From: Escherichia coli
GTDB taxonomy: Bacteria > Pseudomonadota > Gammaproteobacteria > Enterobacterales > Enterobacteriaceae
Reading direction: 5' to 3' (one strand)
Assembly (NCBI RefSeq): GCF_048403405.1
Contig: NZ_CP183129.1
Length of the DNA stretch: 64,000 bases
Both the position numbers and the translations under genes were made by a program. The notes below the pieces were generated by a model. It worked only from the letters and a program-made list of their open reading frames with translations. It did no database searches and was not told the origin of the DNA. Within the stretch, counting starts at the first letter, position 1. Each line of letters begins with the position of its first letter. Shown in pieces: positions 5,540-31,797 of the stretch.

Positions 5540-5870
5540 ATCAGCAGCAGAGCGCAAAGCCGCGCAGCGCGCTCGGCAGTCCGCCGCCGGTGAGCGCAAA
5601 ATTGAACTGGTGCTGGATAAGCAGGAGCAGGAAATGCTGGCGCGGAACTGCGCCGCCCGGCGCCCTGGTCACGATCCCTATGAAATGGCCGAGTACATCG
5701 CGCTGCTGATCCGCCAGGATGATGCACGTGTGCGCGGGCGTATAAAATCGATCAGTAGAAAACGTTGCGGTAAGTGCGGCGAGAGAGTTCCAGTTAATTC
5801 ATGTCCGTGTAATGGTGACTCGCAATGCTGGGTGACTAAAGGCTGGCATGAAACGAAATTAATAGTGTGA
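5529..5870 (+). CDS. Hypothetical protein with C-terminal Cys cluster (CGKCGERVPVNSCPC)
   Basis: 113-aa ORF, last gene before a terminator hairpin. Confidence 0.4.
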   Translation: MMAKSAAERKAAQRARQSAAGERKIELVLDKQEQEMLARNCAARRPGHDPYEMAEYIALLIRQDDARVRGRIKSISRKRCGKCGERVPVNSCPCNGDSQCWVTKGWHETKLIV

Positions 5871-5919
5871 CATGTCACGAGTAGATTATGCATGATGAAT
5901 TTGATGGGTTTTGAATACT

Positions 5920-8057: not shown

Positions 8058-8107
8058 TCCGCTGGTGGGGATAATGTCGTTGATATCCTCTGATGAGGAT
8101 AAAACAA

Positions 8108-8135
8108 AGCCAGCTCATCGGCTGGCTGTTTGTGA
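8108..8135. terminator. Bidirectional terminator hairpin between the large terminase and the minus-strand gene
   Basis: AGCCAGC-TCATC-GGCTGGCT with a T-rich run on the minus strand and GTTTGTG on the plus strand. Confidence 0.4.
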
Positions 8136-8147
8136 CATGTCACGGTG

Positions 8148-8504
8148 TTATTGCTCGCTTAGCTTCTGCTTCAGCAAGTAACCTTCGAGCATCCAGATTT
8201 TGTTTACAGCATTCTGCCGGGCAATCTTCCGACCAATTTCTGCATCAAAGTTTTCCGGGCTTGCACAGGCGCTCTCTCCGGTGACGGTGAAGCCATTCTT
8301 CAGCACCAGTACGCAGAAAGTAAGGAGGTCTGTAGATTTATGCGCTGTCCACGCATCGCCAATGCCCATATTGGCGGCACGAATACCGTCATAAGCAGTA
8401 AAGAAATGCTCTTCAAGAATGATGCTTTCGATATATTGGGGCGTAACTCGCGGTGCCGTTTTGCCTTTCTCAACGATTTCTTTTTCGATTTGCTGGTCGT
8501 TCAT
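8148..8504 (-). CDS. Hypothetical protein encoded opposite to the packaging and head genes (moron-like)
   Basis: 118-aa ORF with RBS AGGTGAG; bracketed by hairpin terminators on both sides. Confidence 0.5.
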   Translation of the reverse strand: MNDQQIEKEIVEKGKTAPRVTPQYIESIILEEHFFTAYDGIRAANMGIGDAWTAHKSTDLLTFCVLVLKNGFTVTGESACASPENFDAEIGRKIARQNAVNKIWMLEGYLLKQKLSEQ

Positions 8505-8702: not shown

Positions 8703-8779
8703 TGGCGTGGCATGCAGGATTCGAACCTGCGACCAACCGCTTAGAAGGCGGTTGCTCTGTCCAACTGAGCTAATGCCAC
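8703..8779 (-). tRNA. tRNA-Arg (anticodon UCU), phage-encoded
   Basis: 77-nt cloverleaf folded by hand: acceptor GTGGCAT/ATGCCAC, D-arm GCTC-AGTTGGACA-GAGC, anticodon arm ACCGC-CTTCTAA-GCGGT, T-arm GCAGG-TTCGAAT-CCTGC, discriminator G, encoded CCA. Confidence 0.85.
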
Positions 8780-18422: not shown

Positions 18423-21169
18423 TGCCTGTTGTTCCTACTACATCCGGACGTCAGGTGCAAAGTCGTGGTGTGCAAACCGGTGGTTTTCAGATCTTCGATG
18501 TTCCTCAAGCAGATCAGGTGCTGGCGAATGTCGCAGATCAGTATGCGGTGGCATATGGTGAAGCCAGGCAGAAAGCGAATGTTGCTATGGCCCAGGAGGC
18601 GTTACTGCAATTTAACCAATTTGCAGATGACCAGATTAACAACCCTGAAAGTGGGCTGATTTCTAAACAGGGTAAAAACGCTCTTGGTCAGAGTGACGCT
18701 GTTATGAAAAATATGCAGGAAAGGGCTCAGGCATTATTAGGCTCAATTCCTGAAAGTGAGGAAAGGAATAAATTATCCTTTCAACTCCAGCAGTCTATGC
18801 AGTCTTATTACAATCAGGCACGTCGATATGAAGTTGGGCAGTTTCAGCAATTCCAAGATCAAACGTATTTGTCAGGAAATGCATTGGCTGTCACTCAGTC
18901 TGCGGGGCTATATAGCGATAACCAAGCATTTGTCGATTTAGCCAAGCAGCGATTTGAATCTATTGATCAATACGCTGATGCGCATGGGCTTCCTGATGAG
19001 TGGCGTGTTCAGCAGAAAACTCAGCTCAAGGAACAAATGGGGCAGCAAGCATGGATAGGAAATATCGCTCAAAAATACAACGAGTTTCTTCAGGTTAATG
19101 GAGAGCCAGGGGATCTTGATGGTGTGAGTCGTGCAATATCACATGGTAATTCATTGGATGCTCGTGGTTTACGTAATAATAACCCTGGTAATATTGAAGC
19201 GAGCAAATCTAACCCGTGGGAAGGTCAGATCGGTAGCGATGGACGTTTTGCAACGTTTGCTACCCCTGAGCATGGAATCCGCGCGTTGGGTAAAAATATG
19301 TTGTCTTACCAGCGTCAAGGCTATGACACCGTTAGCGAGATTGTTAATCGCTATGCTCCGGCTAGTGATGGTAATAATACTGATGCTTATATTAGGGCAT
19401 TGTGTGGTGAGCTTGGTGTTGGGGAGAATGATCAGCTTGATATCTCTAACCCAAAGACACTAGCTGCTTTATGTGCTGGGATTATTAAACACGAAAATGG
19501 CAGTATGCCTTATAGCACCGAACAGCTTGAAACTGGTATCTCGGCAGCCCTTGGTCTAACTAACCTTGATTCACCTAAGCGTTATACAGGCAATGCGGCA
19601 TTTGATGCTATGAGCCCTCAAATGCAAATACAGGCATTGAGGCAGGCTAATGAGCTGAGAAATCAGTACCGCCAGCAGTATGCGGACCAGCTTAGCACCG
19701 TAGTTAAAGATGCATATTCAGCCCTTGATGAAGGATTGAAACCTGAGAAGTTACCTTCTGAGGACGATTTTATCCGGGCCAATGGTCCGCGCATTGGCGC
19801 TATGAAGTGGAAGGATATGCAGGCGCAGATACAATATGGAGGTGTCATTGGTGCCGCTAAAGACCTCACTCCAGAAGGACGACAAGACATTCTTGAACGT
19901 TTACGTCCACAGGATCCAAACGCTCCTGGATTTGCAGCTAACCAGCAACGCTGGGAGAAAATGCAGGCCAAATTTAAAGAGATGGATAGGGAGTGGGAGA
20001 TTCAGCAGGGAAGAAACAGGTTCGTGTCTTCAATGCAAAATAACTTCCCGCTGGACCCGAACGACAAAAACAATCAGGCAGCGGTAGACCGTTATTTCGC
20101 GCAGGATATCGCGCCTTCGTTTTCCATATCTGATCCGCAGAGCATCAATACACTGGTCACCGTCACAACTAAAAGCGGCATGATACCAACTCAGGTTAAA
20201 ACAATGCTTAACAGTGGAGCAACATCAAGAGATCCTGCGCTGGTTGTCCCGATGGCAAAATTCTACGGTCAGTTATTCGATAATAATCCGGCGGCAGCGG
20301 CAACACTTGATAAAAGTACGATGGCATTTTACGGCAAGGTTTACGATTATTCCCGCGCTGGCGTGCCGGAGGATAAGGCTGTTGATATGGCTTACAGCCA
20401 GGTGTTCCAACAGGATGACCGAATGAAACAGATGCTTTCCACTGCCATGCGAGACAAAAAATATGTCGCGGCGAGGGCAACTGCTGCACAAAATAACGCC
20501 AGCAGTCTGACTTCCTTTGGTTCGTGGTCTCCGGATATTACCGATCCAGGAAAATCAAATGCGGCCTATCAGCGAGATTACCAGACAATTTACGATGCTA
20601 ACTTTGTACAGACAGGTGGCGATGCAGAACAGGCTGAGAAAATGACCAATGCCATGATCAGAACCACCTGGGGAGTTTCTACGGTTAATGGCAAAGCAGA
20701 GGTTATGAAGTATGCACCTGAGGCATTGTACGGAGTAAATAATGGTGCTGGTAACTGGATACAGGGGCAGTGGGAGCAGGAAAAACGCGAGCTTAAATCA
20801 AAATCCTTTGGCGGTCCTCGCAGTGATACGGACTTAATACTTGTTTCTGATGGCCTTACGGCAAGGGATAGGAGTTATGCTGTTATGGTTTTACAGCCTG
20901 ACGCAAACGGAGCGATAGAACCGAGAAATTATATTGGAGAAAATGGTCTCCCTGTTCGTTTCAAGCCGGATCAGCTGACATCTCCAATGTACAGGCAAAC
21001 CATTAAGTTCCAGCAACAGCGTGTTGATGAGGCTAGAGTGCGGAGAGAAGGCAATCCGCTGCCGCAGTTCAGCAATAAAGATGGATATACTCCTCCAGAT
21101 CTGACCAAACCATTCGGTTATGGTTCAGCCAATTACCTTCCGAGCAATATATACGCAGGGGGCAAATAA
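18422..21169 (+). CDS. Internal virion / ejection protein (T7 gp15-like core protein)
   Basis: 915 aa, in the gp15 position; contains a conserved-looking block NNPGNIEASKSNPWEGQ...HGIRALGKNMLSY. Confidence 0.5.
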   Translation: MPVVPTTSGRQVQSRGVQTGGFQIFDVPQADQVLANVADQYAVAYGEARQKANVAMAQEALLQFNQFADDQINNPESGLISKQGKNALGQSDAVMKNMQERAQALLGSIPESEERNKLSFQLQQSMQSYYNQARRYEVGQFQQFQDQTYLSGNALAVTQSAGLYSDNQAFVDLAKQRFESIDQYADAHGLPDEWRVQQKTQLKEQMGQQAWIGNIAQKYNEFLQVNGEPGDLDGVSRAISHGNSLDARGLRNNNPGNIEASKSNPWEGQIGSDGRFATFATPEHGIRALGKNMLSYQRQGYDTVSEIVNRYAPASDGNNTDAYIRALCGELGVGENDQLDISNPKTLAALCAGIIKHENGSMPYSTEQLETGISAALGLTNLDSPKRYTGNAAFDAMSPQMQIQALRQANELRNQYRQQYADQLSTVVKDAYSALDEGLKPEKLPSEDDFIRANGPRIGAMKWKDMQAQIQYGGVIGAAKDLTPEGRQDILERLRPQDPNAPGFAANQQRWEKMQAKFKEMDREWEIQQGRNRFVSSMQNNFPLDPNDKNNQAAVDRYFAQDIAPSFSISDPQSINTLVTVTTKSGMIPTQVKTMLNSGATSRDPALVVPMAKFYGQLFDNNPAAAATLDKSTMAFYGKVYDYSRAGVPEDKAVDMAYSQVFQQDDRMKQMLSTAMRDKKYVAARATAAQNNASSLTSFGSWSPDITDPGKSNAAYQRDYQTIYDANFVQTGGDAEQAEKMTNAMIRTTWGVSTVNGKAEVMKYAPEALYGVNNGAGNWIQGQWEQEKRELKSKSFGGPRSDTDLILVSDGLTARDRSYAVMVLQPDANGAIEPRNYIGENGLPVRFKPDQLTSPMYRQTIKFQQQRVDEARVRREGNPLPQFSNKDGYTPPDLTKPFGYGSANYLPSNIYAGGK

Positions 21170-24100
21170 TGCCGATATATGAACAGGATCCTAAAGAGTT
21201 GCTTGGCGAGGATATTCAGCAAATAGCAGCACCTGATGACAGTAATTTCTATATGGAAACACCTTCTTTGCTTTCTGCTGTGAACCCATTTACCAGTGAT
21301 CAACGCGTTCAAAGGTCTAGACAAGCAGCATTTCGTATAGATAACACGCTGGGTAGCTTTATTGCCAGTGCTCCTTTCAGTCAGTTTGACAGGGTTGAAG
21401 GATATAACCCATTTGATAACGATGCAGCAGATATTAAAGGCTATGAAGATTTTGCAGATTCGTTTATCAACTCCGGTTCGCATGAAGAAACAATGGCAAT
21501 TAAACATCGAATCGATCAGCAGAGAGCTGACATGGAATACAATTCAGGCTTGGGATTTGCTGGTACAGTCTCTTCTGTAGCAATGAGATTAGCAGATCCA
21601 TTCAATGCGATTTCTATGTTTATTCCGTTCGGCGCTGTCGTTCGTGGCGGTCGTATTGCAGAAACAGCCGGACGTTTTGCTTTAGCCAATGCTGCTGGCA
21701 GTGTTGCTTCAGAGGCCGCATTGCAGGCCACTCAGGAAGCTCGCTCACCGATGGAGAGCGTATCGAACGTTGTTGTTGATGCTCTCGTTGGTGGGATCCT
21801 TGGTGCTGGTGCACAGCTACTTGCTGGACCTAGCGCGCGCGAGGCAGTGGTTAACTCAGTAGGTAATCATTTGCGAGGTATGGATTCTCCTCAAAGCATT
21901 GGTGCAGCTCAGGTTTTCAATACCACACTCGATCAGGAACAGCTTGCTGGACTTGGACTTGCTAACAAAACGTTGAGTGTCACTCCTGCTGGCCGCTTGG
22001 CGCAATCACCATCTCTTGTTTCCCGTCAGATTAACCAGCAGCTTGCCGAAAATAACTATTTCTTCGCCAAAAATGATGAGGGGTTGGCTACGTTTACGGC
22101 AGTCGAGACTAAGATTAAGCAATACGACGCCATGCTTTATAAGCAGATGGAAGCTACTCGTGATGCTTACCAGCAGTACAGCAAATCTGTCAGCGCCCGC
22201 GGCGTGAAGAGGATGAACTTTATTGATTTCAATGAAGCTGTTGGCATGGCTATGCGCCGTGGTGATCAGAGTGATATTCCTGAGGTTTCACAAGCAGCCG
22301 CCAGAATCCGCCCCATTTTTGAGACCACAAAAGCCCGTATGCAGGAATTGGGGATCCTTCCTGAGGATATCGATGTCGTGACGACGAAGAGTTATCTTCC
22401 CCGCATTTATAAGTTCGATAAGATACTTTCCGACCGCACTGAATTCAGAGGGCGAATTGCCAACTGGATACAAGGGATTAGTGCCAAAGGTGCTGACAAA
22501 GCAGGTCAGCGAATTGAAAAGATAAATTCATTGCTAAAAACTGCAGAGGAATCAGCACCGCGCGCTGATGCTCTCGCTAGTGAAATCGCTGAAGCGGAGA
22601 AATGGTCTGGTAAAAAAATTCTACTCATGGAAGAACTGGATAAACGAAATAAGCTTATATCTCAGGAGACTGACACACAGGCGCGTCTTACAAGAATAGA
22701 AAAAGAGTTGGCCGAGACTTCATCAGAAAAACTTCAGGCAAGAATGATGAAAGAAAGCTCTGACCTTAAAACACGCCTTGATGATATAGCGCAGGCAAAG
22801 AGTGAGCTTCCTGTCTATCAGCGCCATATGGAGTTGCTGGATAATCCACGGAAATATCGTTCTGAGCTTCGCCGACTGCAAAAACGGGCAAATTCAACCA
22901 CAAGGCTGAATGCAAGCCGCGAGCGAGCACTGAAGCAGATGGAGCCTCTATCCCGAGAGGAAGCAGAGGACGCTGCTGACGAGATCGTGAATAAAATAAT
23001 AGGCGCACCTTCCGGGCTTGTACCAGCCGATATTATCCCAGAGAGACTCGTTGGTCGGGCTGGTTTCACTAAAAGCCGAACGCTGCTTATTCCTGATGAG
23101 CGTATAGAAGATTTTCTTGAATCAGATGTTAACTACATCATGGAAAGTTATCTCCGGCAGGTGGCACCAGAAATTGAGCTGACTGCGCAGTTTGGCCGTA
23201 AAGATATGGGGGAGCAAATCCGTCAGGTTAGTGAGGAATATACCCGGCTAATAAAAGAGGCTAAAACACCTAAACGACGTGCAGCTCTTGAGAAGCAACG
23301 GGAGGCTGATATTAGGGATATTACGGCTATGCGTGACCGACTGCTTGGTACTTACGGCGCACCTCAAGATCCACGCAGTTTCTTTGTTCGTGCCGGGCGA
23401 GTTGCTAGGAATATTAACTTCCTCCGTTTGCTTGGTGGAATGACCGTCTCCGCTGCAACTGATCTGATGCGACCGATGATGCAGCATGGCCTGAGAAAAT
23501 CTCTCGGACCAATGGTAAGCATGCTTAAAAATATGGACTCAGTGAAAATTGCAACCAGGGATTTGCGAGAAATGGCAGTTGGGCTTGATTATGTCCTGTC
23601 TACGCGCACAAAGGCTATAGCGGATCTTACTGACCCCTATAGCCGGAGAAGCGCCGCTGAGCGAGGTCTGAACTGGATGACGCAGAAATTCGGTAACTGG
23701 ACGCTGATGAATCAGTGGAACAGCGCACTTAAATCATGGTCTGGGATGATAGTGCAGTCGAGGATACTTGACGCGGCTCGCCAAGTTTCTGCTGGTGGCA
23801 CGCTCTCCAAAAGTGAAATGCGGAAGATGGCACAGGTCGGCATCAATGAAGATGTTCTGCGCCGAATCGGGGAGCAATTCGGGAAGCACGGAGAGGATAT
23901 GGACGGGCTGTTAACCGGGCATAGTCATCTGTGGGATGACCGTTTCGCTAGAGAGATTTTCCAGTCTGCAGTGCTGAAAGATGTAGACTCAGTGATTGTA
24001 ACGCCTGGCGTAGGTGATACACCGCTGTTTTTTAGTAAAGAAGGCTGGAAGATGATCACGCAGTTCAAAACGTTTATCTTCGCACAGCATAACAGGGTGC

Positions 24101-24558
24101 TAGTATCTGGTATCCAGCAGGGCGATGCTGCATTCTATCTTGGTGCGCTTGGCACGATTGCGCTTGGCTCAATGGTCTATATGATGAAACAGAAGTTAAG
24201 CGGTCGCGATATCGACTACAGCTGGAATAACCTTGTGAAAGAGGGGATCGACCGGGGCGGAATGCTTGGCTGGCTCTCTGAGCCGCTGAATACCGTTGAG
24301 AACATAAGCGGCGGTAGGTTTGGTCTTGGCGCGATGTTTGGTGCGCCTCCGGTATCAAGGTTTCAGAGTCGTAATGCTATTGGTGCTTTACTTGGTCCTA
24401 CCTTTGATCTTGGCGGTGATGCCGCGACGGTTGCAAATGGTGTACTTAACGGAGAATTTGACAGCCAGCAAACCCACGCTGTCCGTAAAATGCTACCTTT
24501 TCAGAATCTGTGGGCGATATCACCATTACTAAATAAAGTTGAAGAGCAGATGAAATAG
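21169..24558 (+). CDS. Internal virion / ejection protein (T7 gp16-like)
   Basis: 1129 aa; Gly/hydrophobic-rich C-terminal region resembling the gp16 C-terminus as recalled. Confidence 0.55.
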   Translation: MPIYEQDPKELLGEDIQQIAAPDDSNFYMETPSLLSAVNPFTSDQRVQRSRQAAFRIDNTLGSFIASAPFSQFDRVEGYNPFDNDAADIKGYEDFADSFINSGSHEETMAIKHRIDQQRADMEYNSGLGFAGTVSSVAMRLADPFNAISMFIPFGAVVRGGRIAETAGRFALANAAGSVASEAALQATQEARSPMESVSNVVVDALVGGILGAGAQLLAGPSAREAVVNSVGNHLRGMDSPQSIGAAQVFNTTLDQEQLAGLGLANKTLSVTPAGRLAQSPSLVSRQINQQLAENNYFFAKNDEGLATFTAVETKIKQYDAMLYKQMEATRDAYQQYSKSVSARGVKRMNFIDFNEAVGMAMRRGDQSDIPEVSQAAARIRPIFETTKARMQELGILPEDIDVVTTKSYLPRIYKFDKILSDRTEFRGRIANWIQGISAKGADKAGQRIEKINSLLKTAEESAPRADALASEIAEAEKWSGKKILLMEELDKRNKLISQETDTQARLTRIEKELAETSSEKLQARMMKESSDLKTRLDDIAQAKSELPVYQRHMELLDNPRKYRSELRRLQKRANSTTRLNASRERALKQMEPLSREEAEDAADEIVNKIIGAPSGLVPADIIPERLVGRAGFTKSRTLLIPDERIEDFLESDVNYIMESYLRQVAPEIELTAQFGRKDMGEQIRQVSEEYTRLIKEAKTPKRRAALEKQREADIRDITAMRDRLLGTYGAPQDPRSFFVRAGRVARNINFLRLLGGMTVSAATDLMRPMMQHGLRKSLGPMVSMLKNMDSVKIATRDLREMAVGLDYVLSTRTKAIADLTDPYSRRSAAERGLNWMTQKFGNWTLMNQWNSALKSWSGMIVQSRILDAARQVSAGGTLSKSEMRKMAQVGINEDVLRRIGEQFGKHGEDMDGLLTGHSHLWDDRFAREIFQSAVLKDVDSVIVTPGVGDTPLFFSKEGWKMITQFKTFIFAQHNRVLVSGIQQGDAAFYLGALGTIALGSMVYMMKQKLSGRDIDYSWNNLVKEGIDRGGMLGWLSEPLNTVENISGGRFGLGAMFGAPPVSRFQSRNAIGALLGPTFDLGGDAATVANGVLNGEFDSQQTHAVRKMLPFQNLWAISPLLNKVEEQMK

Positions 24559-24559
24559 G

Positions 24560-25411
24560 ATGAAAAAAATAAATTTGTTTTTTGGCATAGTGCTTTCAAT
24601 AGTCTCTGTAAATCCTACAGCTGCCAGTTCATTGCAATGCAATAAGGATAACTTTGATGCATGCAAAACGTGCGAACAATTATCAAAGGCTATCGACTTA
24701 AAAGAACCTAATCGTGGCGATTACTATAGAGGGGCTTTATGGAATGGGCTTTACGCCTCTTATGTAATTAATTGCCCTGTGGTTGCAGAGAAGTTACTGA
24801 GCCATGGTGCTATACCATCATATGGCGGATATATGGGGTCTATGGGGGCGGTTCTGACAGGAAAATGGCCTCATAACAATGAATCAATAAATCTTTCATG
24901 GGCAGATTTGCTTATAAAACATGGATTTGATGTTAATAGGCATACGGGGAATTATAAATCAGCTACTGAAGTATGGGCTATAGATAAAAAACAGATTGAA
25001 TATAAGTCAGTTTTTGACAAGTTAATTCAATCCAGCGAAGTAAAACCACTCGATCCTTCAAGAAATTTAGAATGGTGTGCGTCTGAAGGGTATCGCTCAG
25101 TTGTCGTTTATTCCCTTAACTCATGTATAGAAAATGCTATAAAACGTTTGGATGACGGTGTTTCTTCAGCGTCTGATATTTCATCAGCAGCCGTAAATTC
25201 CTGTACTAGCGATGTAGAAAATTTCAATAAGCATTTGGCATGCAAAGCAGCTGTTAAAGAAAACTCTGATAAAGAGAGAAGCAACGTTTACCAGTTATTA
25301 ACCAGTGATAGTCAAATGAATAAAAATGTTATTGATATGCTGAAGGAAAGAAATATTGAAACGGTTCTTGAATTTAGAGCTGAAAATCGATCAGCGAAAA
25401 CTGCACAGTGA
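24560..25411 (+). CDS. Secreted hypothetical protein with ankyrin-like repeats (moron), AT-rich
   Basis: Signal peptide MKKINLFFGIVLSIVSVNPTAAS; two ankyrin-like segments (...AEKLLSHGAIPS..., ...ADLLIKHGFDVN...); start 1 nt after the gp16-like stop; terminator follows. Confidence 0.55.
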   Translation: MKKINLFFGIVLSIVSVNPTAASSLQCNKDNFDACKTCEQLSKAIDLKEPNRGDYYRGALWNGLYASYVINCPVVAEKLLSHGAIPSYGGYMGSMGAVLTGKWPHNNESINLSWADLLIKHGFDVNRHTGNYKSATEVWAIDKKQIEYKSVFDKLIQSSEVKPLDPSRNLEWCASEGYRSVVVYSLNSCIENAIKRLDDGVSSASDISSAAVNSCTSDVENFNKHLACKAAVKENSDKERSNVYQLLTSDSQMNKNVIDMLKERNIETVLEFRAENRSAKTAQ

Positions 25412-25417
25412 TCAAAC

Positions 25418-25442
25418 AGGCCGCTTTCGCGGCCTTGTTTTT
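25418..25442. terminator. Bidirectional terminator hairpin
   Basis: AGGCCGC-TTTC-GCGGCCT followed by TGTTTTT; hairpin core GGCCGCTTTCGCGGCC is identical to the one at 28670. Confidence 0.55.
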
Positions 25443-25602
25443 AACGAATGCCACCGCCGCCAGGGCGGGAATCCGCAGAACGCCCACCGCAGCGGGAGCC
25501 GTCAGCGGCAGTATCGCTGTCGTGCTGACAACGACCGGCAAAGGCCTGAGTTGAAGCTACCAGAGACAACAAAACGAACAGTGCAGCAAATGCTTTTTTC
25601 AT
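25441..25602 (-). CDS. Small secreted Gly/Cys-containing peptide (53 aa) with its own promoter (moron)
   Basis: Internal start MKKAFAALFVLLSLVASTQAFA gives a clean signal peptide; promoter-like hexamers upstream and terminator downstream. Confidence 0.45.
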   Translation of the reverse strand: MKKAFAALFVLLSLVASTQAFAGRCQHDSDTAADGSRCGGRSADSRPGGGGIR

Positions 25603-25615
25603 TGTGAAATTTCCA

Positions 25616-25643
25616 TCTATAAGCCACCTCAATGTGGCGTCAA
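25616..25643 (-). promoter_or_regulatory. Candidate sigma70 promoter for the small secreted peptide (-35 TTGACG, -10 TATAGA, 16-nt spacer)
   Basis: Minus-strand hexamers at 25638-25643 and 25616-25621. Confidence 0.35.
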
Positions 25644-25672
25644 TGAGTGTAGCACTGACTTTTGTTTCGTCC

Positions 25673-25695
25673 ACAAAAAAGCCCGCAGCGCGGGC
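25673..25695 (-). terminator. Minus-strand rho-independent terminator
   Basis: GCCCGC-AGC-GCGGGC followed on the minus strand by TTTTTT, immediately after the stop at 25696. Confidence 0.5.
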
Positions 25696-25929
25696 TTACT
25701 TTTCTTCAGGTTTGTTGTCTTCAGATTTCTTCTTGATGCTTGGTTTTTGTCTAAGACCGAAAATACCAGCCACTGCAACAACTGTACCGATCACTGTGCC
25801 AGCTAGAACTTCATGACCTGTTAAACCTAATAATGTTGCACAAGCTACTGTAAAAATAGTTGCACTCAGGCCAAACCACTGCCCACGTTTATCTCTATTA
25901 ATAGCCCCGTCAAGTGCCTTTTCCTCCAT
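25696..25929 (-). CDS. Small two-TM membrane protein (possibly the C-terminal part of a frameshifted larger gene)
   Basis: 77 aa with two hydrophobic segments and a Lys-rich tail; the same frame stays open upstream to ~26073. Confidence 0.45.
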   Translation of the reverse strand: MEEKALDGAINRDKRGQWFGLSATIFTVACATLLGLTGHEVLAGTVIGTVVAVAGIFGLRQKPSIKKKSEDNKPEEK

Positions 25930-25958
25930 TTTCTGGCGGTGAGCAAACTCCTTCTCCG

Positions 25959-26243
25959 TCAGCTGGAAGATGCGTTCGGGGGCATCAGGTAAAATATCCT
26001 GATACCCGCGAAGCAGATAGGGGGAGGAAGCGGACCCTGAAACGCATGGTGAGCGACAACTATCTCCTGAATTTCAGGGCGATCAAGAACTCTTGTGAAG
26101 GCATCTGGGTGTTGAATGATCTCGTTACTTAGCCCTTCCTCAACTTCCTCGAACTCAGTTTCTTCGTTATCACTTGGTTGCCCAATAGATTTTTGCATAT
26201 TTGTCGAAGGACATTCCTTTAGCTTCTGGTTTTCCTCTTGCAT
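25959..26243 (-). CDS. Acidic hypothetical protein (possibly the middle part of a frameshifted gene)
   Basis: 94-aa ORF overlapping the upstream ORF by 74 nt in another frame; C-terminus degenerates into Pro-rich sequence near a G5 run at ~26019-26026. Confidence 0.3.
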   Translation of the reverse strand: MQEENQKLKECPSTNMQKSIGQPSDNEETEFEEVEEGLSNEIIQHPDAFTRVLDRPEIQEIVVAHHAFQGPLPPPICFAGIRIFYLMPPNASSS

Positions 26244-26496
26244 TTGAGTTTTTCCCTGTCACTATTGCCCATTTTCCGCCAGCAGGCGCTGCAATTTTTT
26301 TTCCGTTCTTTACTATATATTCAGCATAAACACGATTTTCTGACCGTCTGAGATCGTCTCCGACCATATTCATGTCTCTTGATATAACTTTGACGACAGA
26401 GTCTCGGTTTAAAGCCTTGGCATAGTTGGAGCCAGGAACGATACCCAAAGGGGTGCCAGACTCTATAGCCAGCTCCTTGACATATCTTCTGCTCAT
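26170..26496 (-). CDS. Hypothetical protein, putative DNA-binding/regulatory N-terminal module
   Basis: ATG at 26496 after GAGGT; MSRRYVKELAIESGTPLGIVPGSNYAKALNRDSVVKV... Confidence 0.45.
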   Translation of the reverse strand: MSRRYVKELAIESGTPLGIVPGSNYAKALNRDSVVKVISRDMNMVGDDLRRSENRVYAEYIVKNGKKIAAPAGGKWAIVTGKNSNARGKPEAKGMSFDKYAKIYWATK

Positions 26497-26617
26497 ATGA
26501 ACCTCAACCAATCGACTTTACCAATCGGGTAATTTTAAACATGAGTATAATGCTTTTAACTGCAACGAGTGTAAACAATTATTGATAATTGTAGGCACAT
26601 CCCTGTGCCGCCGCCCG

Positions 26618-27310
26618 TCAGAAGAACCCTGCTTTGTCGTTGATGTACTCCGCGTGCGTCTGGATATCACGCAGGCATTTGCTCACACCGACGATGTAGC
26701 AGAACATGGTGGTCAACTCCGCCGCCGCGCCCGATACGTCGTGCCCGTCTTCCTGTAACTGGTTTAGCAGATTCATCAGCAGTGAGTTCTCCGTCAGGCC
26801 GAGAACACCAGACGGCGAATGAATCAGGCTGCGGTAGCCGGGCTTCAGTGGGGCGCTGTAGGTTTTGTTCTCTACCTTCATTGCCTGCATCACTGCTGAT
26901 GCTGTGGCGTTGGCTACCTGGTCGGCAACCATCTTTATGCGTTCTTCCTGCGGGAGCGAGTTTTTAATGTAACTTCCGGTGCGGCGGATCTGAGGAAGAA
27001 CCTCACCTGTAACCCATTCAAGAAATCTGAATGCTCTCGTTCCCTCAGTCATTGCCTCTTTGCAACGCAGAATAAGGATGTAGAGACCTGATTCTGAAAC
27101 GATGGATAGTTCTTGTATTCCACCAGGGGTCTGTATTGAATACAGCCCCTTTTTGTTCCAGCCTTTTTTATCAAGTTTTCTCGCTTGTGTAACATCAATA
27201 TTCAAAGCATTGCACACATCTTTGGTGACAAACCAAGGTTCTCCGTCAATCATGAACATACGGATCTGGCAGGATGACTCAAAGGAAAAGATGGAAGGTT
27301 TGGTATTCAT
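26618..27310 (-). CDS. Antirepressor (Bro-N domain plus KilA-C/ANT C-terminal domain)
   Basis: Start MNTKPSIF after AAAGGTGA; Bro-N-like N-terminus (FMIDGEPWFVTKDVCNALNI...) and ANT-like C-terminus, as recalled. Confidence 0.7.
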   Translation of the reverse strand: MNTKPSIFSFESSCQIRMFMIDGEPWFVTKDVCNALNIDVTQARKLDKKGWNKKGLYSIQTPGGIQELSIVSESGLYILILRCKEAMTEGTRAFRFLEWVTGEVLPQIRRTGSYIKNSLPQEERIKMVADQVANATASAVMQAMKVENKTYSAPLKPGYRSLIHSPSGVLGLTENSLLMNLLNQLQEDGHDVSGAAAELTTMFCYIVGVSKCLRDIQTHAEYINDKAGFF

Positions 27311-27669
27311 AGCGATCACCTTTGTAGTTAGGTTAATCACCACCGCTGAGACCAATCAGATGGTGGTGAACTGTGCAGAGTTGGTCTTACCGGCTACAAA
27401 GGAACCCGGCGCACCTTTCGGTGCCCCCACACAGCCCACCATAGAATAGGTGCGCTTTACACATAAAAAAACCGCTTATGCGGCATATGTGCCTCTGTAG
27501 TAATCCGGGAGACCAATCCCGGCACTGGATTTTGCCAGTGCCCGATTACTATGGCACAAGAGGAGTGCAATGTAAATTTACCGAAAAGGTAATAATAAAT
27601 GCATAACTCACGTTATTTCAACCCTATATGGTTTGATTTATCCCATTTCAGAAAATACCTGCCTATTTT

Positions 27670-27699
27670 TTTGCCAGTATGCGTATACTTTCGATAGAA
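27670..27699 (+). promoter_or_regulatory. Candidate sigma70 promoter (-35 TTGCCA, 18-nt spacer, -10 TAGAAT) for the 27718 operon
   Basis: Hexamers read directly from the sequence; palindrome site 5 abuts the -10. Confidence 0.4.
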
Positions 27700-27701
27700 T
27701 G

Positions 27702-27716
27702 TTTACCCTAGAGGTA
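27702..27716. promoter_or_regulatory. Palindrome TTACC-CTAGA-GGTAG (operator-like site 5, one arm imperfect)
   Basis: Lies between the -10 hexamer and the start codon, an operator-like position. Confidence 0.4.
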
Positions 27717-27717
27717 G

Positions 27718-28173
27718 TTGGGGGTGCCCGTGAACACGAAGAGAGCTACAGTAATGCAGCATTTGAGGAAATCAGAAAAAAATAAAGACCATGAAATATT
27801 GAGTAAGGCCATTGTTCGGGCTTCCAATAATACTGTTATACCTCATGCTGAAGAGTCTGGACAGAAATTTCTTATTCGGTATTTCACTGAAAATAGTGCA
27901 GTTGAGGAGATTTTAAAACATCAGGGAGGGGAATTTAAATGTGGAAAACTGGCAGATTATGTTCGTCGTGAAACGTCTGAACAAGAAGTATATTATGCTG
28001 ATATTAATCATAAGTCAGGTGTGAAAATTGTAATAGGCTATTACACAACTCCCAAAAATGTTATGCATGAGGTCCCAAAGATGTCCGTCGAGAAATCTCA
28101 TGCAATCTCGCGCAGGATGTTTGCACGCACTGCCGAAGATATGGCTCAGGAGCTCTACGACGATGCTGAATAA
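27718..28173 (+). CDS. Hypothetical protein with acidic C-terminus; candidate antitoxin/immunity partner of the downstream YafO-like gene (ATG alternative at ~27754)
   Basis: 151-aa ORF, AT-rich; its stop overlaps the start of the next gene (ATGCTGAATAA). Confidence 0.45.
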   Translation: MGVPVNTKRATVMQHLRKSEKNKDHEILSKAIVRASNNTVIPHAEESGQKFLIRYFTENSAVEEILKHQGGEFKCGKLADYVRRETSEQEVYYADINHKSGVKIVIGYYTTPKNVMHEVPKMSVEKSHAISRRMFARTAEDMAQELYDDAE

Positions 28174-28477
28174 ATTCCAGGGGTTGGTTCACCCTGGAAT
28201 TTTTGGGAAGGACCCTGAGCTAATACCTATCAAAAACGCGTTCATAGATCACTGGCGCTACGGTCATCATAAGGATTTCGGAAAGGACACTCTGTTTCGG
28301 GATCCACCGAAAGAAATGCTGGAATATCACATACGCCACGTTCACGTAAACATCGGAAACTATACTGACAAGTTTGGTGAGAGCGGTACGGACAATGCTG
28401 GAAAAACTGGGCGTCTGGGAAGAAAGACAAGACCACTAACAAGCATAAAAAGATCCCAACCAGTGACGTGTATGTGA
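28163..28477 (+). CDS. YafO-like toxin, N-terminal part (gene appears frame-split)
   Basis: FGKDTLFRDPPKEMLEYHIRHVHV resembles the recalled YafO motif FGRDALYDD...ERVAHIHL. Confidence 0.4.
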   Translation: MLNKFQGLVHPGIFGKDPELIPIKNAFIDHWRYGHHKDFGKDTLFRDPPKEMLEYHIRHVHVNIGNYTDKFGESGTDNAGKTGRLGRKTRPLTSIKRSQPVTCM

Positions 28478-28668
28478 TTTATCTGGTCACATCTGAACGC
28501 CATGCCTTCCTTCTGGATTATTGGGATGAACCAGCACATAAGACAGTAGAAATTGACGAGCAGAAGCAAAAATTAGTTGTCGAGTGTGACAGAATTTTGC
28601 GGCTGAAAAAGTTAGAATCCATGCCGCGCGATGCTAGTTTGTGGGACCCAGAATTTTACGACTGTTAA
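28468..28668 (+). CDS. YafO-like toxin, C-terminal part in the -1 frame
   Basis: YLVTSERHAFLLDYWDEPAHK resembles recalled YafO HLVYCQGAFDEQAWLLIAILKPEPHK; overlaps the previous ORF by 10 nt. Confidence 0.35.
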   Translation: MYVIYLVTSERHAFLLDYWDEPAHKTVEIDEQKQKLVVECDRILRLKKLESMPRDASLWDPEFYDC

Positions 28669-28669
28669 T

Positions 28670-28692
28670 GGCCGCTTTCGCGGCCTTTAAAT
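28670..28692. terminator. Bidirectional terminator hairpin
   Basis: GGCCGC-TTTC-GCGGCC followed by TTTAAATTT; same hairpin sequence as at 25419-25434. Confidence 0.5.
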
Positions 28693-28950
28693 TTACCGGG
28701 TTTGTTTTCGTAATTGTTCGGCACAATAGTCGAGATGTGTTTGCAGATCCCGCATAGACATCTGTGAGCTGGTGACGTAGTTAATCAGTGCAGTCAGTTC
28801 GGCAAGTGGGCCATCGACATTAAATCCATCCTTATCGAGATCCCGGAGTAATTTCATCAAGTGCGATCCCTCCACCAGTGACCTGACGCCTCCCGGCGTG
28901 TGAATCCTTTCGGTAAATCCGTCTTCCAGTGGATAGTGATACTGCTGCAT
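28693..28950 (-). CDS. Stand-alone KilA-C/ANT C-terminal domain protein (paralog of the antirepressor C-terminus)
   Basis: Internal ATG at 28950 after GGAGAAG; MQQYHYPLEDGFTERIHTPGGVRSLVEGSHLMKLLRDLDKDGFNV... aligns with the C-terminal ~85 aa of the antirepressor at 26618-27310. Confidence 0.6.
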   Translation of the reverse strand: MQQYHYPLEDGFTERIHTPGGVRSLVEGSHLMKLLRDLDKDGFNVDGPLAELTALINYVTSSQMSMRDLQTHLDYCAEQLRKQTR

Positions 28951-29026
28951 CTTATCTTCTCCATGCAATAACTGTATGTTTATACAGTAACAAATAATTT
29001 GTTTGCTATCCAGCACGTTTTGCAAA

Positions 29027-29041
29027 TTACCTGAAAGGTAA
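29027..29041. promoter_or_regulatory. Palindrome TTACC-TGAAA-GGTAA (operator-like site 6) in the divergent region upstream of the tailspike gene
   Basis: Perfect palindrome; followed by ATATCTATTCGTA (also beside site 1) and TATGTGGTT-N5-GGTAATA. Confidence 0.45.
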
Positions 29042-29145: not shown

Positions 29146-31797
29146 ATGACGGTCTCAACCGAAGTTGACCACAACGAATACACTGGTAACGGAGCTACGA
29201 CATCATTTCCGTATACCTTCCGTATTTTCAAAAAATCCGACCTGGTTGTTCAGGTGTCTGACCTGAACGGGAACGTAACAGAATTGGTTCTGGATACTGA
29301 CTACACAGTAACCAATGCTGGAGGATATAATGGCGGTAATGTAATTCTGTCGAAGGCGTTGGCTAACGGTTATCATATTTCTATATCACGAGAGCTCCCG
29401 GTTACGCAGGATACTGATTTGCGTAATCAGGGTAAGTTCTTCGCTGAGGTACATGAAGACGCGTTCGATAAACTGACAATGCTTATTCAAAAGTGTTTTT
29501 CATGGATGAGGTTAGCACTTATAAAACCAAGCATTCTGGCTAACTATTATGATGCAAAAAATAATAAGATATCAAATCTAGCAAATGCCACTGACAGAAA
29601 CGATGCTGTCAATAAAGGTTATGTTGATGATCTTTTTACTGGAGGTGTAACGCCTACACCTAACAGCGTTAAAAACGATATTTTTACAAATCACCAAAGA
29701 AAGATTGTAGCTACGATGCCGCTTCTTTTTCCTGAATATGATGCGATTATGGCTGCTAACCCGTCAGCAACTTATATGTATCCTCAAGGATTCTGCGTTA
29801 GCGAAGATTTGATATACATCACTTATCCATTTGAGCCTAAACAGACGAATAATGTCGTCGCAGTATTTAACATATCTGGTATTTATCAAGGTTATTTCTA
29901 TGTTCAGGCTGGCGGCCCAGGCTTCGCTGCTGAAGGAATCGTGGTTACGTCAGACTATGGCCCCAAAAAAATGTTTGTTGGTCACACAAACGGAATACTG
30001 CGTGAATTTAATATGGAGGGGGCATTATACGGAAGCAATCTGCCTCTTGTACAAAACCATGATGTTGGATTATTCAACCAGTTCAGCTACAGAAGAGGTA
30101 TATGGCTCGTTGAGCAGAATGCGCCAGAAGTAGGACAGAAAATCACAAGAACTGTACTTGCAGTGTTCGACAGTGGTTTCAATCGCCTGTCAACTATAAC
30201 GCTGCCGTTACATGATGTTGGGTATGTAACTAAAAGCACCTCACCTTATGCGCCTTATTTCAACAAGCGTCAGGGTATTGCGGTAGGTGATAACTACTTT
30301 GTCTGCGGCTATGGCGGCTTCATAGCTGATGGGGCAGGAAGCGCAGGATATAACGAATATCAGGGCAGCAAAGTTTTTAACCCTGACGGTACAAAGCGAA
30401 CTGAATCAATGCTTCATCCTCAGGCCATGATGGATTTAATGAAAGCCGCAGGATTGAACGTCACTCGCATAGAAAATGAAGGCGTTTGTGTTTCTCAGGA
30501 TGGAAAATCCATTTATTCACTTTACATTCATCAGGAAAGAACTGGCTCTGAACCTTACAATTCAGGTTTGGTTATTTTCGAAGATTTCTCCACTGATAAA
30601 GATGCTATCGATTTTACACCTGCATCCAGGCTTTACCGCGGATTTGATATCGATCACGCGAGCATTGGGGTATATCCCCGTAGTGCGAAGGGGATTGTTA
30701 ACCCTGTAGATGGTACGTTGTTCACTAACATGACTGAAATTCTTCGCTATATGCAGGAGATGAGTCAGAAGGCATTTAATTTTTACACAGGGACTGTCAG
30801 CATTGCTGATATATCTGGCGTGGCAATCCCTTCCAGCACATATGTTGAAATACTGAATGCGAATAATCAGACTTTTATAGTCAACTATTATTCATCTGAT
30901 AGTGGTATTAGTTATTTGGTTGCAACTAATCCTTCTGGTGACTTTGTATTTGTGCGCCAGCGACCGGCACAGTGGGCATCTAACTTAACCATTCAGCAAA
31001 ACGCAGATCCTGATACAAACCAATTAAACCGCATCACTGCATCATCATATGCCGGTGCAACTACAAACTCTCAGAAAATATTGGTCCTTGACCAGCAGGC
31101 TACAGCTAGCGCAAATAGCTTGGTATTGGGCGGTAGTTCTTCTGTGTTTAGGTCTGCCACCACGGTGGATATTGCATGCAACAGCGACCCGACAGCATTG
31201 GGAGGAACCATACGCTGGCGGTTTTATGATACAGGTCTTCGCCCGTTTGCTGACAATACCTATAATTTTGGTCAGGCATCGTTTCGTATTAAAGACGCCT
31301 ACTTTGCAAATGCCCCAACCGTTTCATCAGATGCCACGCTGAAAACCAATCCCGAGGCAATATCAGATTTAAGTGAAATGCTTTCTTCTGATAGAGACAG
31401 CATTCTTGATGCCTGGGGCGATATTTCTGTTGTGGCGTATCGATGGCTCGACGCTATATCCATGAAGGGCGATGGTGCCAGATGGCATTTTGGCGTCATG
31501 GCTCAGCAGGTAAGGGATGTATTCTTGGCGCACGGAATTGATGGAACCAGATTTGGCCTTCTTTGCTATGACGAGTGGGATGATATTTTTGAGCCGGTAA
31601 TCGCGACTAAAGAGATTACCGATACGTCTGGTGAGTTGGTCACCGTCGAATATGACACCGGAGAACAGAGGCTGGTTAAAAAAGCGGGTAGTTCATGGGG
31701 TATACGGCCTGACCAGTGCGCTTGGCTTGAGGCTGCATATCAGCGCCGTCGATGCGATCGTATTGAAGAGCGACTCGAACTATTGGAATCAAAATAA
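29146..31797 (+). CDS. Tailspike protein with epsilon15/CBA120-type N-terminal particle-binding domain and C-terminal self-cleaving intramolecular chaperone (peptidase S74-like) domain
   Basis: N-terminus MTVSTEVDHNEYTGNGATTSFPYTFRIFKKSDLVVQV as recalled for this tailspike family; C-terminal ~156 aa (from ~31327) with SDATLK, YRW, FGVMAQQV blocks typical of endosialidase-chaperone domains. Confidence 0.8.
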   Translation: MTVSTEVDHNEYTGNGATTSFPYTFRIFKKSDLVVQVSDLNGNVTELVLDTDYTVTNAGGYNGGNVILSKALANGYHISISRELPVTQDTDLRNQGKFFAEVHEDAFDKLTMLIQKCFSWMRLALIKPSILANYYDAKNNKISNLANATDRNDAVNKGYVDDLFTGGVTPTPNSVKNDIFTNHQRKIVATMPLLFPEYDAIMAANPSATYMYPQGFCVSEDLIYITYPFEPKQTNNVVAVFNISGIYQGYFYVQAGGPGFAAEGIVVTSDYGPKKMFVGHTNGILREFNMEGALYGSNLPLVQNHDVGLFNQFSYRRGIWLVEQNAPEVGQKITRTVLAVFDSGFNRLSTITLPLHDVGYVTKSTSPYAPYFNKRQGIAVGDNYFVCGYGGFIADGAGSAGYNEYQGSKVFNPDGTKRTESMLHPQAMMDLMKAAGLNVTRIENEGVCVSQDGKSIYSLYIHQERTGSEPYNSGLVIFEDFSTDKDAIDFTPASRLYRGFDIDHASIGVYPRSAKGIVNPVDGTLFTNMTEILRYMQEMSQKAFNFYTGTVSIADISGVAIPSSTYVEILNANNQTFIVNYYSSDSGISYLVATNPSGDFVFVRQRPAQWASNLTIQQNADPDTNQLNRITASSYAGATTNSQKILVLDQQATASANSLVLGGSSSVFRSATTVDIACNSDPTALGGTIRWRFYDTGLRPFADNTYNFGQASFRIKDAYFANAPTVSSDATLKTNPEAISDLSEMLSSDRDSILDAWGDISVVAYRWLDAISMKGDGARWHFGVMAQQVRDVFLAHGIDGTRFGLLCYDEWDDIFEPVIATKEITDTSGELVTVEYDTGEQRLVKKAGSSWGIRPDQCAWLEAAYQRRRCDRIEERLELLESK

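Follow-up and report, generated by a model that had tools for sequence, protein, structure and literature searches.

A conserved terminator hairpin of phiV10/epsilon15-type phages at the borders of exchanged accessory genes in an Escherichia coli prophage

The two hairpin sites

A 16-nt hairpin, GGCCGCTTTCGCGGCC, occurs twice in the 64,000-nt stretch of Escherichia coli DNA analysed here (contig NZ_CP183129.1 of RefSeq assembly GCF_048403405.1), which we refer to as the window. A prophage of the phiV10/epsilon15 type (genus Uetakevirus) makes up the left half of the window. The nearest sequenced phage is EC.W1-9 (coverage 87%, identity 98%), followed by TL-2011b, phiV10, Tyrion and epsilon15; the host genes yfgI and yfgH lie downstream of the prophage. 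A scan of the window bore out the original prediction that identical hairpins are present at 25419-25434 (site 1, hairpin 1) and 28670-28685 (site 2, hairpin 2): both are exact matches, where 0.04 matches are expected from shuffled sequences. Allowing up to two mismatches brings in one further match, at 62404, which does not form a hairpin. The identity between the two copies extends over 18 nt (GGCCGCTTTCGCGGCCTT) at a spacing of 3251 nt, and beyond these 18 nt the flanks are unrelated.

Each copy consists of a stem, GGCCGC/GCGGCC, of six G-C base pairs, lengthened by A/T pairs and closed by a 4-nt loop that reads TTTC on the + strand and GAAA on the - strand. The predicted folding energies are -14.3 to -17.5 kcal/mol, with z values of about -3.1 to -3.7, on both strands. 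The two sites had been taken for bidirectional terminators. For the + strand this holds, in that the terminator scan called both sites there, with tails TTGTTTTT at site 1 and TTTAAATTT at site 2. On the - strand the case is weaker: the tails, GTTTGATC and ATTAACAG, respectively, are poor U-tracts and were not flagged by the scan. A hairpin with a GAAA loop on the - strand could serve in the stabilisation of 3' ends. No promoter-like site overlapping either hairpin was found in the scan, and an Rfam search of the region returned no family over either of them.

The stop codons of four convergent open reading frames (ORFs) all lie within 1-7 nt of a hairpin copy. Hairpin 1 is located 7 nt past the stop of a 283-aa ORF (24560-25411, + strand), and a 53-aa ORF (25441-25602, - strand) stops 6 nt beyond it. 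The 283-aa gene, to which no function has been assigned, occupies a variable slot upstream of hairpin 1 and starts 1 nt past the stop codon of the backbone gene for the DUF919 large internal virion (core/ejection) protein (21169-24558, +), at the end of the late structural block. Hairpin 1 is predicted to end this + strand late structural operon together with the 283-aa gene and, from the other side, the 53-aa gene, whose product has a signal-peptide-like N-terminus and which is widespread in phiV10-like phages. Hairpin 2 is situated between a YafO-family cassette on the + strand, whose toxin gene (28163-28668) stops 1 nt before it, and a gene similar to gp19 of epsilon15 (28693-28950, -), which stops 7 nt beyond it and belongs to the backbone. 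The flank with the 53-aa gene is referred to below as S1 and that with the gp19-like gene as S2. The hairpins had been described as lying between convergent cargo genes; the convergence is clear, but two of the four are not cargo specific to this strain, the gp19-like gene being backbone and the 53-aa gene common across the family.

A terminator of the phage backbone

In phiV10 the identical 16-mer occurs once, where the record annotates a predicted terminator (19505-19522) after the last structural genes. Epsilon15, a Salmonella phage about 25% diverged, has a single copy of the form GGCCGC-AATA-GCGGCC within an annotated terminator (19531-19556) between gp18 and gp19; the order there, gp18, a 12-bp palindrome, AA, the hairpin, gp19 (-) and the tailspike gene, is the simplest layout. 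Both terminators share with the window hairpins the stem and the map position, which follows the last genes for internal virion proteins and precedes the leftward gp19-type gene. They differ in being single, whereas in the window a pair of identical copies encloses 3.25 kb, and, in epsilon15, in the AATA loop; the annotations of the two genomes mark no recombination role. The exact 16-mer is also kept where the flanking gene is only 72-76% identical, as in Enterobacter phage Tyrion and in contigs with a diverged form of the 53-aa-gene flank. The gp19-like module retains hairpin 2 in genomes without the YafO cassette, and hairpin 1 is retained in genomes without the 283-aa gene. We conclude from these comparisons that the hairpin is the phage's own conserved, predicted late-operon terminator, a part of the backbone and not of the cargo. 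It would be a rho-independent terminator that closes the Uetakevirus late structural operon and faces the short leftward gp19 unit.

Our comparisons covered about 200 related contigs and, for E. coli, 5,426 complete genomes. The whole YafO cassette, used as a query, was found in 38 genomes. In 13 of 40 sampled records the match starts exactly at 28670, and in the remainder it begins within the gp19-like module, a few bases further on; no match to the cassette ends at the hairpin without the gp19-like module. Hairpin 2 therefore travels with gp19 and not with the cassette.

This result bears on the suggestion, made in the original prediction, that the cassettes have a shared origin. Either a common source of the two cassettes or the arrival of each with its own copy of the terminator would make the hairpin cargo. 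Morons typically carry their own terminator (PMC3594210), and the YafO-family pair, with a promoter-like site (27671-27700), its genes and a terminator 1 nt after its end, resembles such an independent unit lodged between backbone genes. The 53-aa gene looks like a similarly self-contained unit. The likeness to a moron is nevertheless incomplete, since the terminator used is the backbone hairpin and not an imported one, and the 283-aa gene lacks its own promoter. Moreover, a hairpin belonging to the cargo is at odds with its persistence, already noted, next to gp19 in epsilon15 and in genomes devoid of the YafO cassette or of the 283-aa gene, as well as with the failure of any cassette match to end at the hairpin in the absence of the gp19 flank. 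All matches in sequenced phages are of the phiV10/epsilon15 type, an unrelated 243-aa gene adjoins the same hairpin 2 in other relatives, and the 18 nt are all that the cassettes have in common. We regard a cargo-borne hairpin as very unlikely, and the shared origin of the cassettes is not upheld.

Occurrence of the 16-mer elsewhere

The 16-mer is not peculiar to these phages. At least 120 matches were obtained in each of the two collections scanned, in many unrelated contexts, and 21 of the 120 listed genomic matches have a T-rich tail. In Citrobacter and other enterics the sequence serves as the ppiD-ybaV terminator, and at that locus E. coli has one mismatch. In E. coli, two copies 174 bp apart are found between a convergent prohibitin-family gene and tkt (JNE21-009, L383 positions 128 and 302), where they appear to flank repetitive extragenic palindromic (REP)-like repeats; the prohibitin-family/tkt arrangement is present in 1,366 of the 5,426 genomes. 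A query from the tkt locus matches 9-49 places per genome (median 28), owing to the REP-like repeats and not to the hairpin. The hairpin was itself considered as a REP or bacterial interspersed mosaic element (BIME), for which a REP consensus of about 35 nt and many chromosomal copies are characteristic; it is not a REP and merely flanks REP-like repeats at tkt. The tkt locus can be viewed as a parallel, in the chromosome, to the duplication of a terminator around inserted DNA. In an unrelated phage family (L053, L054, L107), the same 16-mer occurs twice, 274 bp apart (141-156 and 415-430 in L053), around a single 77-aa gene in an SSB-containing early region of 47% G+C; sequence shared among the relatives there is limited to the hairpin and about 20 nt.

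Counted by assembly among the matches listed, there is one copy in E. albertii and there are two in C. werkmanii, which suggests about 1-2 copies per enteric genome. The 16-mer is a generic good terminator but a rare one; two copies within 3.3 kb are not a background effect. The original prediction had named a common generic terminator, found throughout the host chromosome, as the finding that would speak against it; the sequence is indeed generic, and in E. coli occurs at tkt, but it is rare and not chromosome-wide. A related possibility is that two independent G+C-rich terminators arrived by chance at the same 16 bases, the sequence space of good terminators being small. The spread of the 16-mer over many unrelated bacteria and phages, and its presence at ppiD-ybaV and tkt in enteric chromosomes, fit such a convergence, which is made highly improbable by the shuffling result, by a frequency of about one or two copies per 5 Mb of enteric genome as against two in 3.3 kb here, by the presence throughout the phage family of one stem at the two sites, irrespective of the loop, and by the existence of a single-copy, ancestor-like layout (see below).

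Breakpoints and layouts among relatives

A 6-kb query around the hairpins has matches in 573 of the 5,426 complete E. coli genomes, and in only 25 of these do the matches cover at least 80% of its length. Of 60 evenly sampled records, 36 begin to match at window position 25416, 3 nt before hairpin 1, and 5 at 28670. The prophage of FDAARGOS_497 is nearly identical to that of the window, with four differences between 18000 and 28688 (one substitution, one difference of unclassified type and 1-nt deletions in the window at 26019 and 28391), and the two sequences diverge directly after hairpin 2. Across hundreds of related prophages, breaks in homology are thus seen to fall exactly at the hairpins, where accessory genes appear to be swapped in and out among relatives.

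The layouts of this region were scored in those relatives whose sequence extends far enough upstream. Two hairpins 1.8-3.6 kb apart are present in about 33 contigs, about 30 of which have TTTC in the loop of hairpin 1 and TCTT, TCTA or TAGA in that of hairpin 2; two TTTC copies, as in the window, are found in three relatives. Hairpin 1 is present alone in a further layout (about 33), in which the operator region of the antirepressor operon abuts the stop of the gp19-like gene. An AT-rich sequence in relatives without hairpin 2 was at first taken for an alternative terminator; it is an operator motif of the epsilon15 type. In 10 contigs (five TTTC, five TCTT) a single hairpin leads straight onto the gp19-like module with no cargo. 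The complete genome HCP4S3_I4 has one copy, in the order 98-aa gene (with its stop inside the palindrome), palindrome, GGCCGCTTTCGCGGCC, TTTAAATTTACCGGG, gp19-like gene (-), and its right flank is 100% identical to the right flank of site 2 in the window. In view of this layout, the window looks like the single-copy arrangement with 3.25 kb inserted at the hairpin and a hairpin on both sides. In four relatives (L121, L037, L024 and L045), a second copy of the BRO-N region (window 26595-27598) is found in inverted orientation immediately upstream of the palindrome and hairpin, which creates kilobase-scale inverted repeats around the hairpin in those relatives.

Exchange of flanks and loops

Every GGCCGC-N4-GCGGCC site in the family was tabulated from 260 loci drawn from four IMG/VR scans. 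The S1 right flank is associated with the loop TTTC at 124 of 127 sites, and its diverged form at 13 of 13, while the S2 right flank follows TCTT at 55 sites, TTTC at 19, TCTA at four and TAGA at two. There are 18 distinct left contexts, which end at least nine unrelated small genes, and two to four different sequences on the right, where four downstream classes are distinguished. One left context ending in the palindrome is joined to S1/TTTC at 32 sites, to S2/TTTC at seven and to S2/TCTT at three, and there is one instance of a palindrome left context joined to S1/TCTT. The end of the YafO gene is joined to S2/TTTC at six sites and to S2/TCTT at three, and the end of the unrelated 243-aa gene, which encodes a membrane-anchored, Cys-rich protein, to S2/TCTT at 43 and to S1/TCTT once. 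For left against right flank, left flank against loop and loop against right flank, all four combinations are seen. The existence of all combinations implies exchanges to either side of the 4-nt loop or, less plausibly, repeated double substitutions. Gapped alignment distinguishes three alleles of the YafO cassette (0.1%, 3% and 18% diverged), which combine freely with loop and right flank. The proposal that the hairpin is a preferred recombination joint draws support from the breakpoints on the hairpins and from the occurrence of flanks and loop in all combinations, and this support is by inference only.

Among the S2 sites, the loops TAGA (L046, L221) and TCTA (L127, L219, L260) are reverse complements of one another on an identical stem. 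Such a pair is what an inversion of the loop on its stem, as opposed to point mutation, would be expected to give, and an inversion of this kind may have taken place.

A model for cargo entry

We consider it on balance probable that the cargo entered at the backbone terminator by short-homology recombination and that the terminator, the conserved late terminator of Uetakevirus, was duplicated in the process. The ancestral layout would be that of epsilon15 and some E. coli prophages, in which a last core gene is followed by a small gene, the palindrome, one hairpin, gp19 (-) and the tailspike gene. The 3.25-kb accessory block of the window, made up of a small secreted-peptide gene, a BRO-N antirepressor operon under C4/isrK control and the YafO-family cassette, would have entered by a crossover within the hairpin, leaving a hairpin on both sides. 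The partner DNA may have been a circle with one copy, integrating in the manner of Campbell, or another phage with different terminator neighbours, through an unequal exchange. Later recombination of the direct copies would delete the cargo and restore the single-copy layout, the loop being set by the stem arm that hosted the exchange. The crossover would most likely depend on short homology or microhomology, by means of the phage RecT/exonuclease or by template switching at the hairpin, and would not be site-specific. RecT/exonuclease genes are present in phiV10 and epsilon15, and phage recombinases use short, diverged homology (PMC3945230). That strand exchange took place in the hairpin itself, and that these enzymes were responsible, is what we infer.

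A number of observations weigh against this model. The stem arms of 6 nt, or even an identity of 16-18 nt, are very short for homologous recombination, and this prophage's own recombinase genes lie outside the window. The counts of contigs given above are not counts of independent events. The exact deletion product expected of the window prophage, with the 283-aa gene, the hairpin and the gp19 flank TTTAAATTTACC, is absent from the 5,426 genomes, none of which matched a synthetic junction query at the threshold of at least 80% coverage. Further breakpoints are found in the region at 25697, 26570-26595 and 27598-27602, so that every gene boundary in the region is a breakpoint and the hairpin is not uniquely favoured. 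Finally, breakpoints could come to lie at closely spaced intergenic hairpins through selection alone, if junctions that interrupt genes are eliminated.

The last two points form the core of a different explanation, in which the hairpin is a passive landmark: illegitimate recombination would be random, or crossovers would fall in longer flanking homology such as the core genes or gp19 and the tailspike gene, and selection would retain intact junctions. The spacers between stop codons and hairpins measure 0-20 nt, so that viable junctions must fall near the hairpin, which is itself under strong purifying selection, and about 70% of temperate-phage mosaics bear no traces of flanking homology (PMC3945230). 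This explanation nevertheless leaves three features unaccounted for, namely the same stem on both sides of the insert, the genomes with one intact hairpin whose flanks come from different sites, and the re-assortment of loop alleles with both flanks over no more than 8 nt. We therefore regard a passive role as possible but rather doubtful, and prefer entry of the cargo by recombination at the terminator.

The palindrome beside the hairpin

In most relatives the 16-nt hairpin is directly preceded by a second element, a perfect palindrome of 12-14 bp, (C/T)GTGACATGTCAC(A/G), which is absent from the window's own two hairpins. It is the least explained element seen in this analysis. There are about three copies per Uetakevirus genome, each of them placed after the end of a gene and before a rho-independent terminator; a TGA stop codon often forms part of the palindrome. 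One 14-bp copy in the window, TGTGACATGTCACG (5866-5879, +), includes the codon at which the last early gene stops, with a terminator after it. Read along the - strand, a second copy (8131-8144, given on the + strand) follows the stop of a 118-aa gene and precedes a terminator hairpin at 8107-8127. The palindrome occurs at 2262 and 19493 in phiV10 (L261) and at 2142, 19517 and 39612 in epsilon15 (L384), and is unannotated in both records; the linear phiV10 record opens in the centre of one copy. It differs from the annotated repressor operators of epsilon15, ATTACC-N5-GGTAAT, and a literature search on the termini or packaging sites of phiV10 and epsilon15 yielded nothing on it.

Three roles for these sequences were considered and rejected. 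The half-sites TGTGA/TCACA recall a CRP/FNR-type site, for which the consensus spacing is N6, but are spaced by N4. GTGACA within the palindrome resembles a -35 element, but no usable -10 element follows. As for coding, a frame running from an ATG in the palindrome would be translated as A-A-F-A-A across the hairpin, and an extra base in epsilon15 shifts this frame.

With the terminator that follows it, the palindrome forms a composite present three times per genome, the conserved unit being 16 nt, or 30 nt when the palindrome is included. It is conceivable, though in our judgement improbable, that this composite is a cassette resembling the PeSL elements of T4-like phages (see below) and actively drives the capture of cargo. 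Three operon ends per genome carry the composite, and two of these border the two cargo slots. In one version of this idea, the palindrome would be bound or cut by terminase or a nuclease, and the recombinogenic ends would be resolved at the adjacent hairpin by the phage RecT/exonuclease.

A further possibility is that the hairpin, alone or with the palindrome, is the site of a dedicated site-specific recombinase or nuclease, as are integron attC sites or the target of a homing enzyme. The position of the hairpin at the 3' ends of cassettes is that of attC, a conserved 14-bp palindrome adjoins it in most relatives, and the opening of the phiV10 record within a palindrome copy would fit a site of cleavage. 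However, attC sites are imperfect palindromes of 57-141 bp with paired boxes and extrahelical bases, recombined by IntI. The window hairpin is a perfect palindromic element of 16 nt without this architecture, and homology ends within 0-3 nt of it. The annotations of the region and of the phiV10 and epsilon15 genomes include neither IntI nor attI, and no other candidate enzyme is annotated nearby; a P4-type phage integrase is encoded elsewhere in those phages. Crossovers on either side of the loop indicate no single fixed position, and the palindrome is missing from the window's two hairpins. A dedicated recombination site thus appears extremely unlikely.

Contents of the accessory block and its neighbours

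Beyond the 53-aa gene, a different bidirectional terminator-like hairpin (AAGCCCGCAGCGCGGGCTT, 25679-25697) coincides with another recurrent mosaic breakpoint. It is followed by three genes on the - strand: a DUF2335 membrane-protein gene (25696-26244), a hypothetical gene (26171-26497) annotated downstream of the antirepressor gene, and the antirepressor-type gene itself, annotated with a BRO-N domain (26618-27311). A C4 antisense RNA (27359-27446; Rfam, 78.6 bits) and an isrK RNA (27465-27541; 74.7 bits) are encoded on the same strand just upstream of the BRO-N gene, and for this reason the leftward "cargo" is to be seen as an antirepressor control module like P1 immI rather than as arbitrary cargo. 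Where the antirepressor operon and the YafO cassette diverge, the promoter region contains a repressor-operator-like palindrome, TTACC-N5-GGTAA (27576-27592), of which a second copy (29025-29041) is located upstream of the gp19-like gene and the tailspike gene; both match the motif annotated as repressor-binding sites in epsilon15. The first gene of the + strand cassette (27730-28173) is hypothetical and is presumed to encode the partner of the YafO-family toxin. The tailspike gene (29146-31797, +) is backbone in its N-terminal part and variable in the rest.

Two genes of the block are frameshifted relative to the near-identical prophage of FDAARGOS_497, that for the DUF2335 protein by the deletion at 26019 and that for the YafO-family toxin by the deletion at 28391. 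These deletions could reflect real decay or errors of assembly.

The prophage has a second accessory slot, situated between the genes for the large terminase and the portal, which contains the 118-aa gene (8148-8504, -), which is similar to p03 of phiV10, and a tRNA-Arg(TCT) gene (8703-8779, -). It is bounded by a terminator and the palindrome.

Relation to known systems and implications

As a putative recombination joint, the hairpin behaves most like the PeSL (promoter-early stem-loop) cassettes of T4-like phages. There, a conserved stem-loop at the borders of variable genes bounds indels and replacements, and recombination between copies, with excision as circles among its outcomes, has been proposed (Arbiol et al. 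2010, PMC2839356; Comeau et al. 2014, PMC4122927). The window hairpin is likewise repeated at the borders of variable genes, and the indels between close relatives are bounded by it. The PeSL motif is, however, a composite with a strong sigma-70 early promoter, present in about 50 copies per genome that cluster in hyperplastic regions, for which mini-circles and terminator activity have been shown experimentally (PMC2839356, PMC4122927). In contrast, the unit described here lacks a promoter and is found in 1-2 copies per genome of a temperate podovirus. Lacking the promoter component and the copy number of PeSL, the hairpin is not a member of that family. The "linker" sequences of lambdoid phages and their relaxed homologous recombination (PMC3945230) offer a second comparison, in which a conserved island likewise separates non-homologous modules and RecT/exonuclease is a plausible agent; here, the homology amounts to only 16-30 nt and is itself a hairpin. 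In both comparisons, the present case is known from sequence alone. The terminator role is already annotated in phiV10 and epsilon15, and what the window presents is a clear and fairly ordinary instance of phage gene shuffling at a conserved stem-loop, not a new kind of system.

Phages of the phiV10/epsilon15 type integrate beside guaA, are widespread and carry serotype-converting and K1-specific tailspikes. In the prophages of this type in E. coli and related enterics, the hairpin marks the place at which accessory genes are gained and lost, among them toxin-antitoxin-like pairs, antirepressor modules and genes for small membrane or secreted proteins. Two direct-repeat hairpins of 16-18 nt, 3.25 kb apart, provide a simple substrate for distinguishing mosaic joints made by recombination over tiny homologies from those made by random joining and selection. 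Together with the adjacent palindrome, the hairpin offers a useful anchor for delimiting the cargo of phiV10/epsilon15-type prophages.

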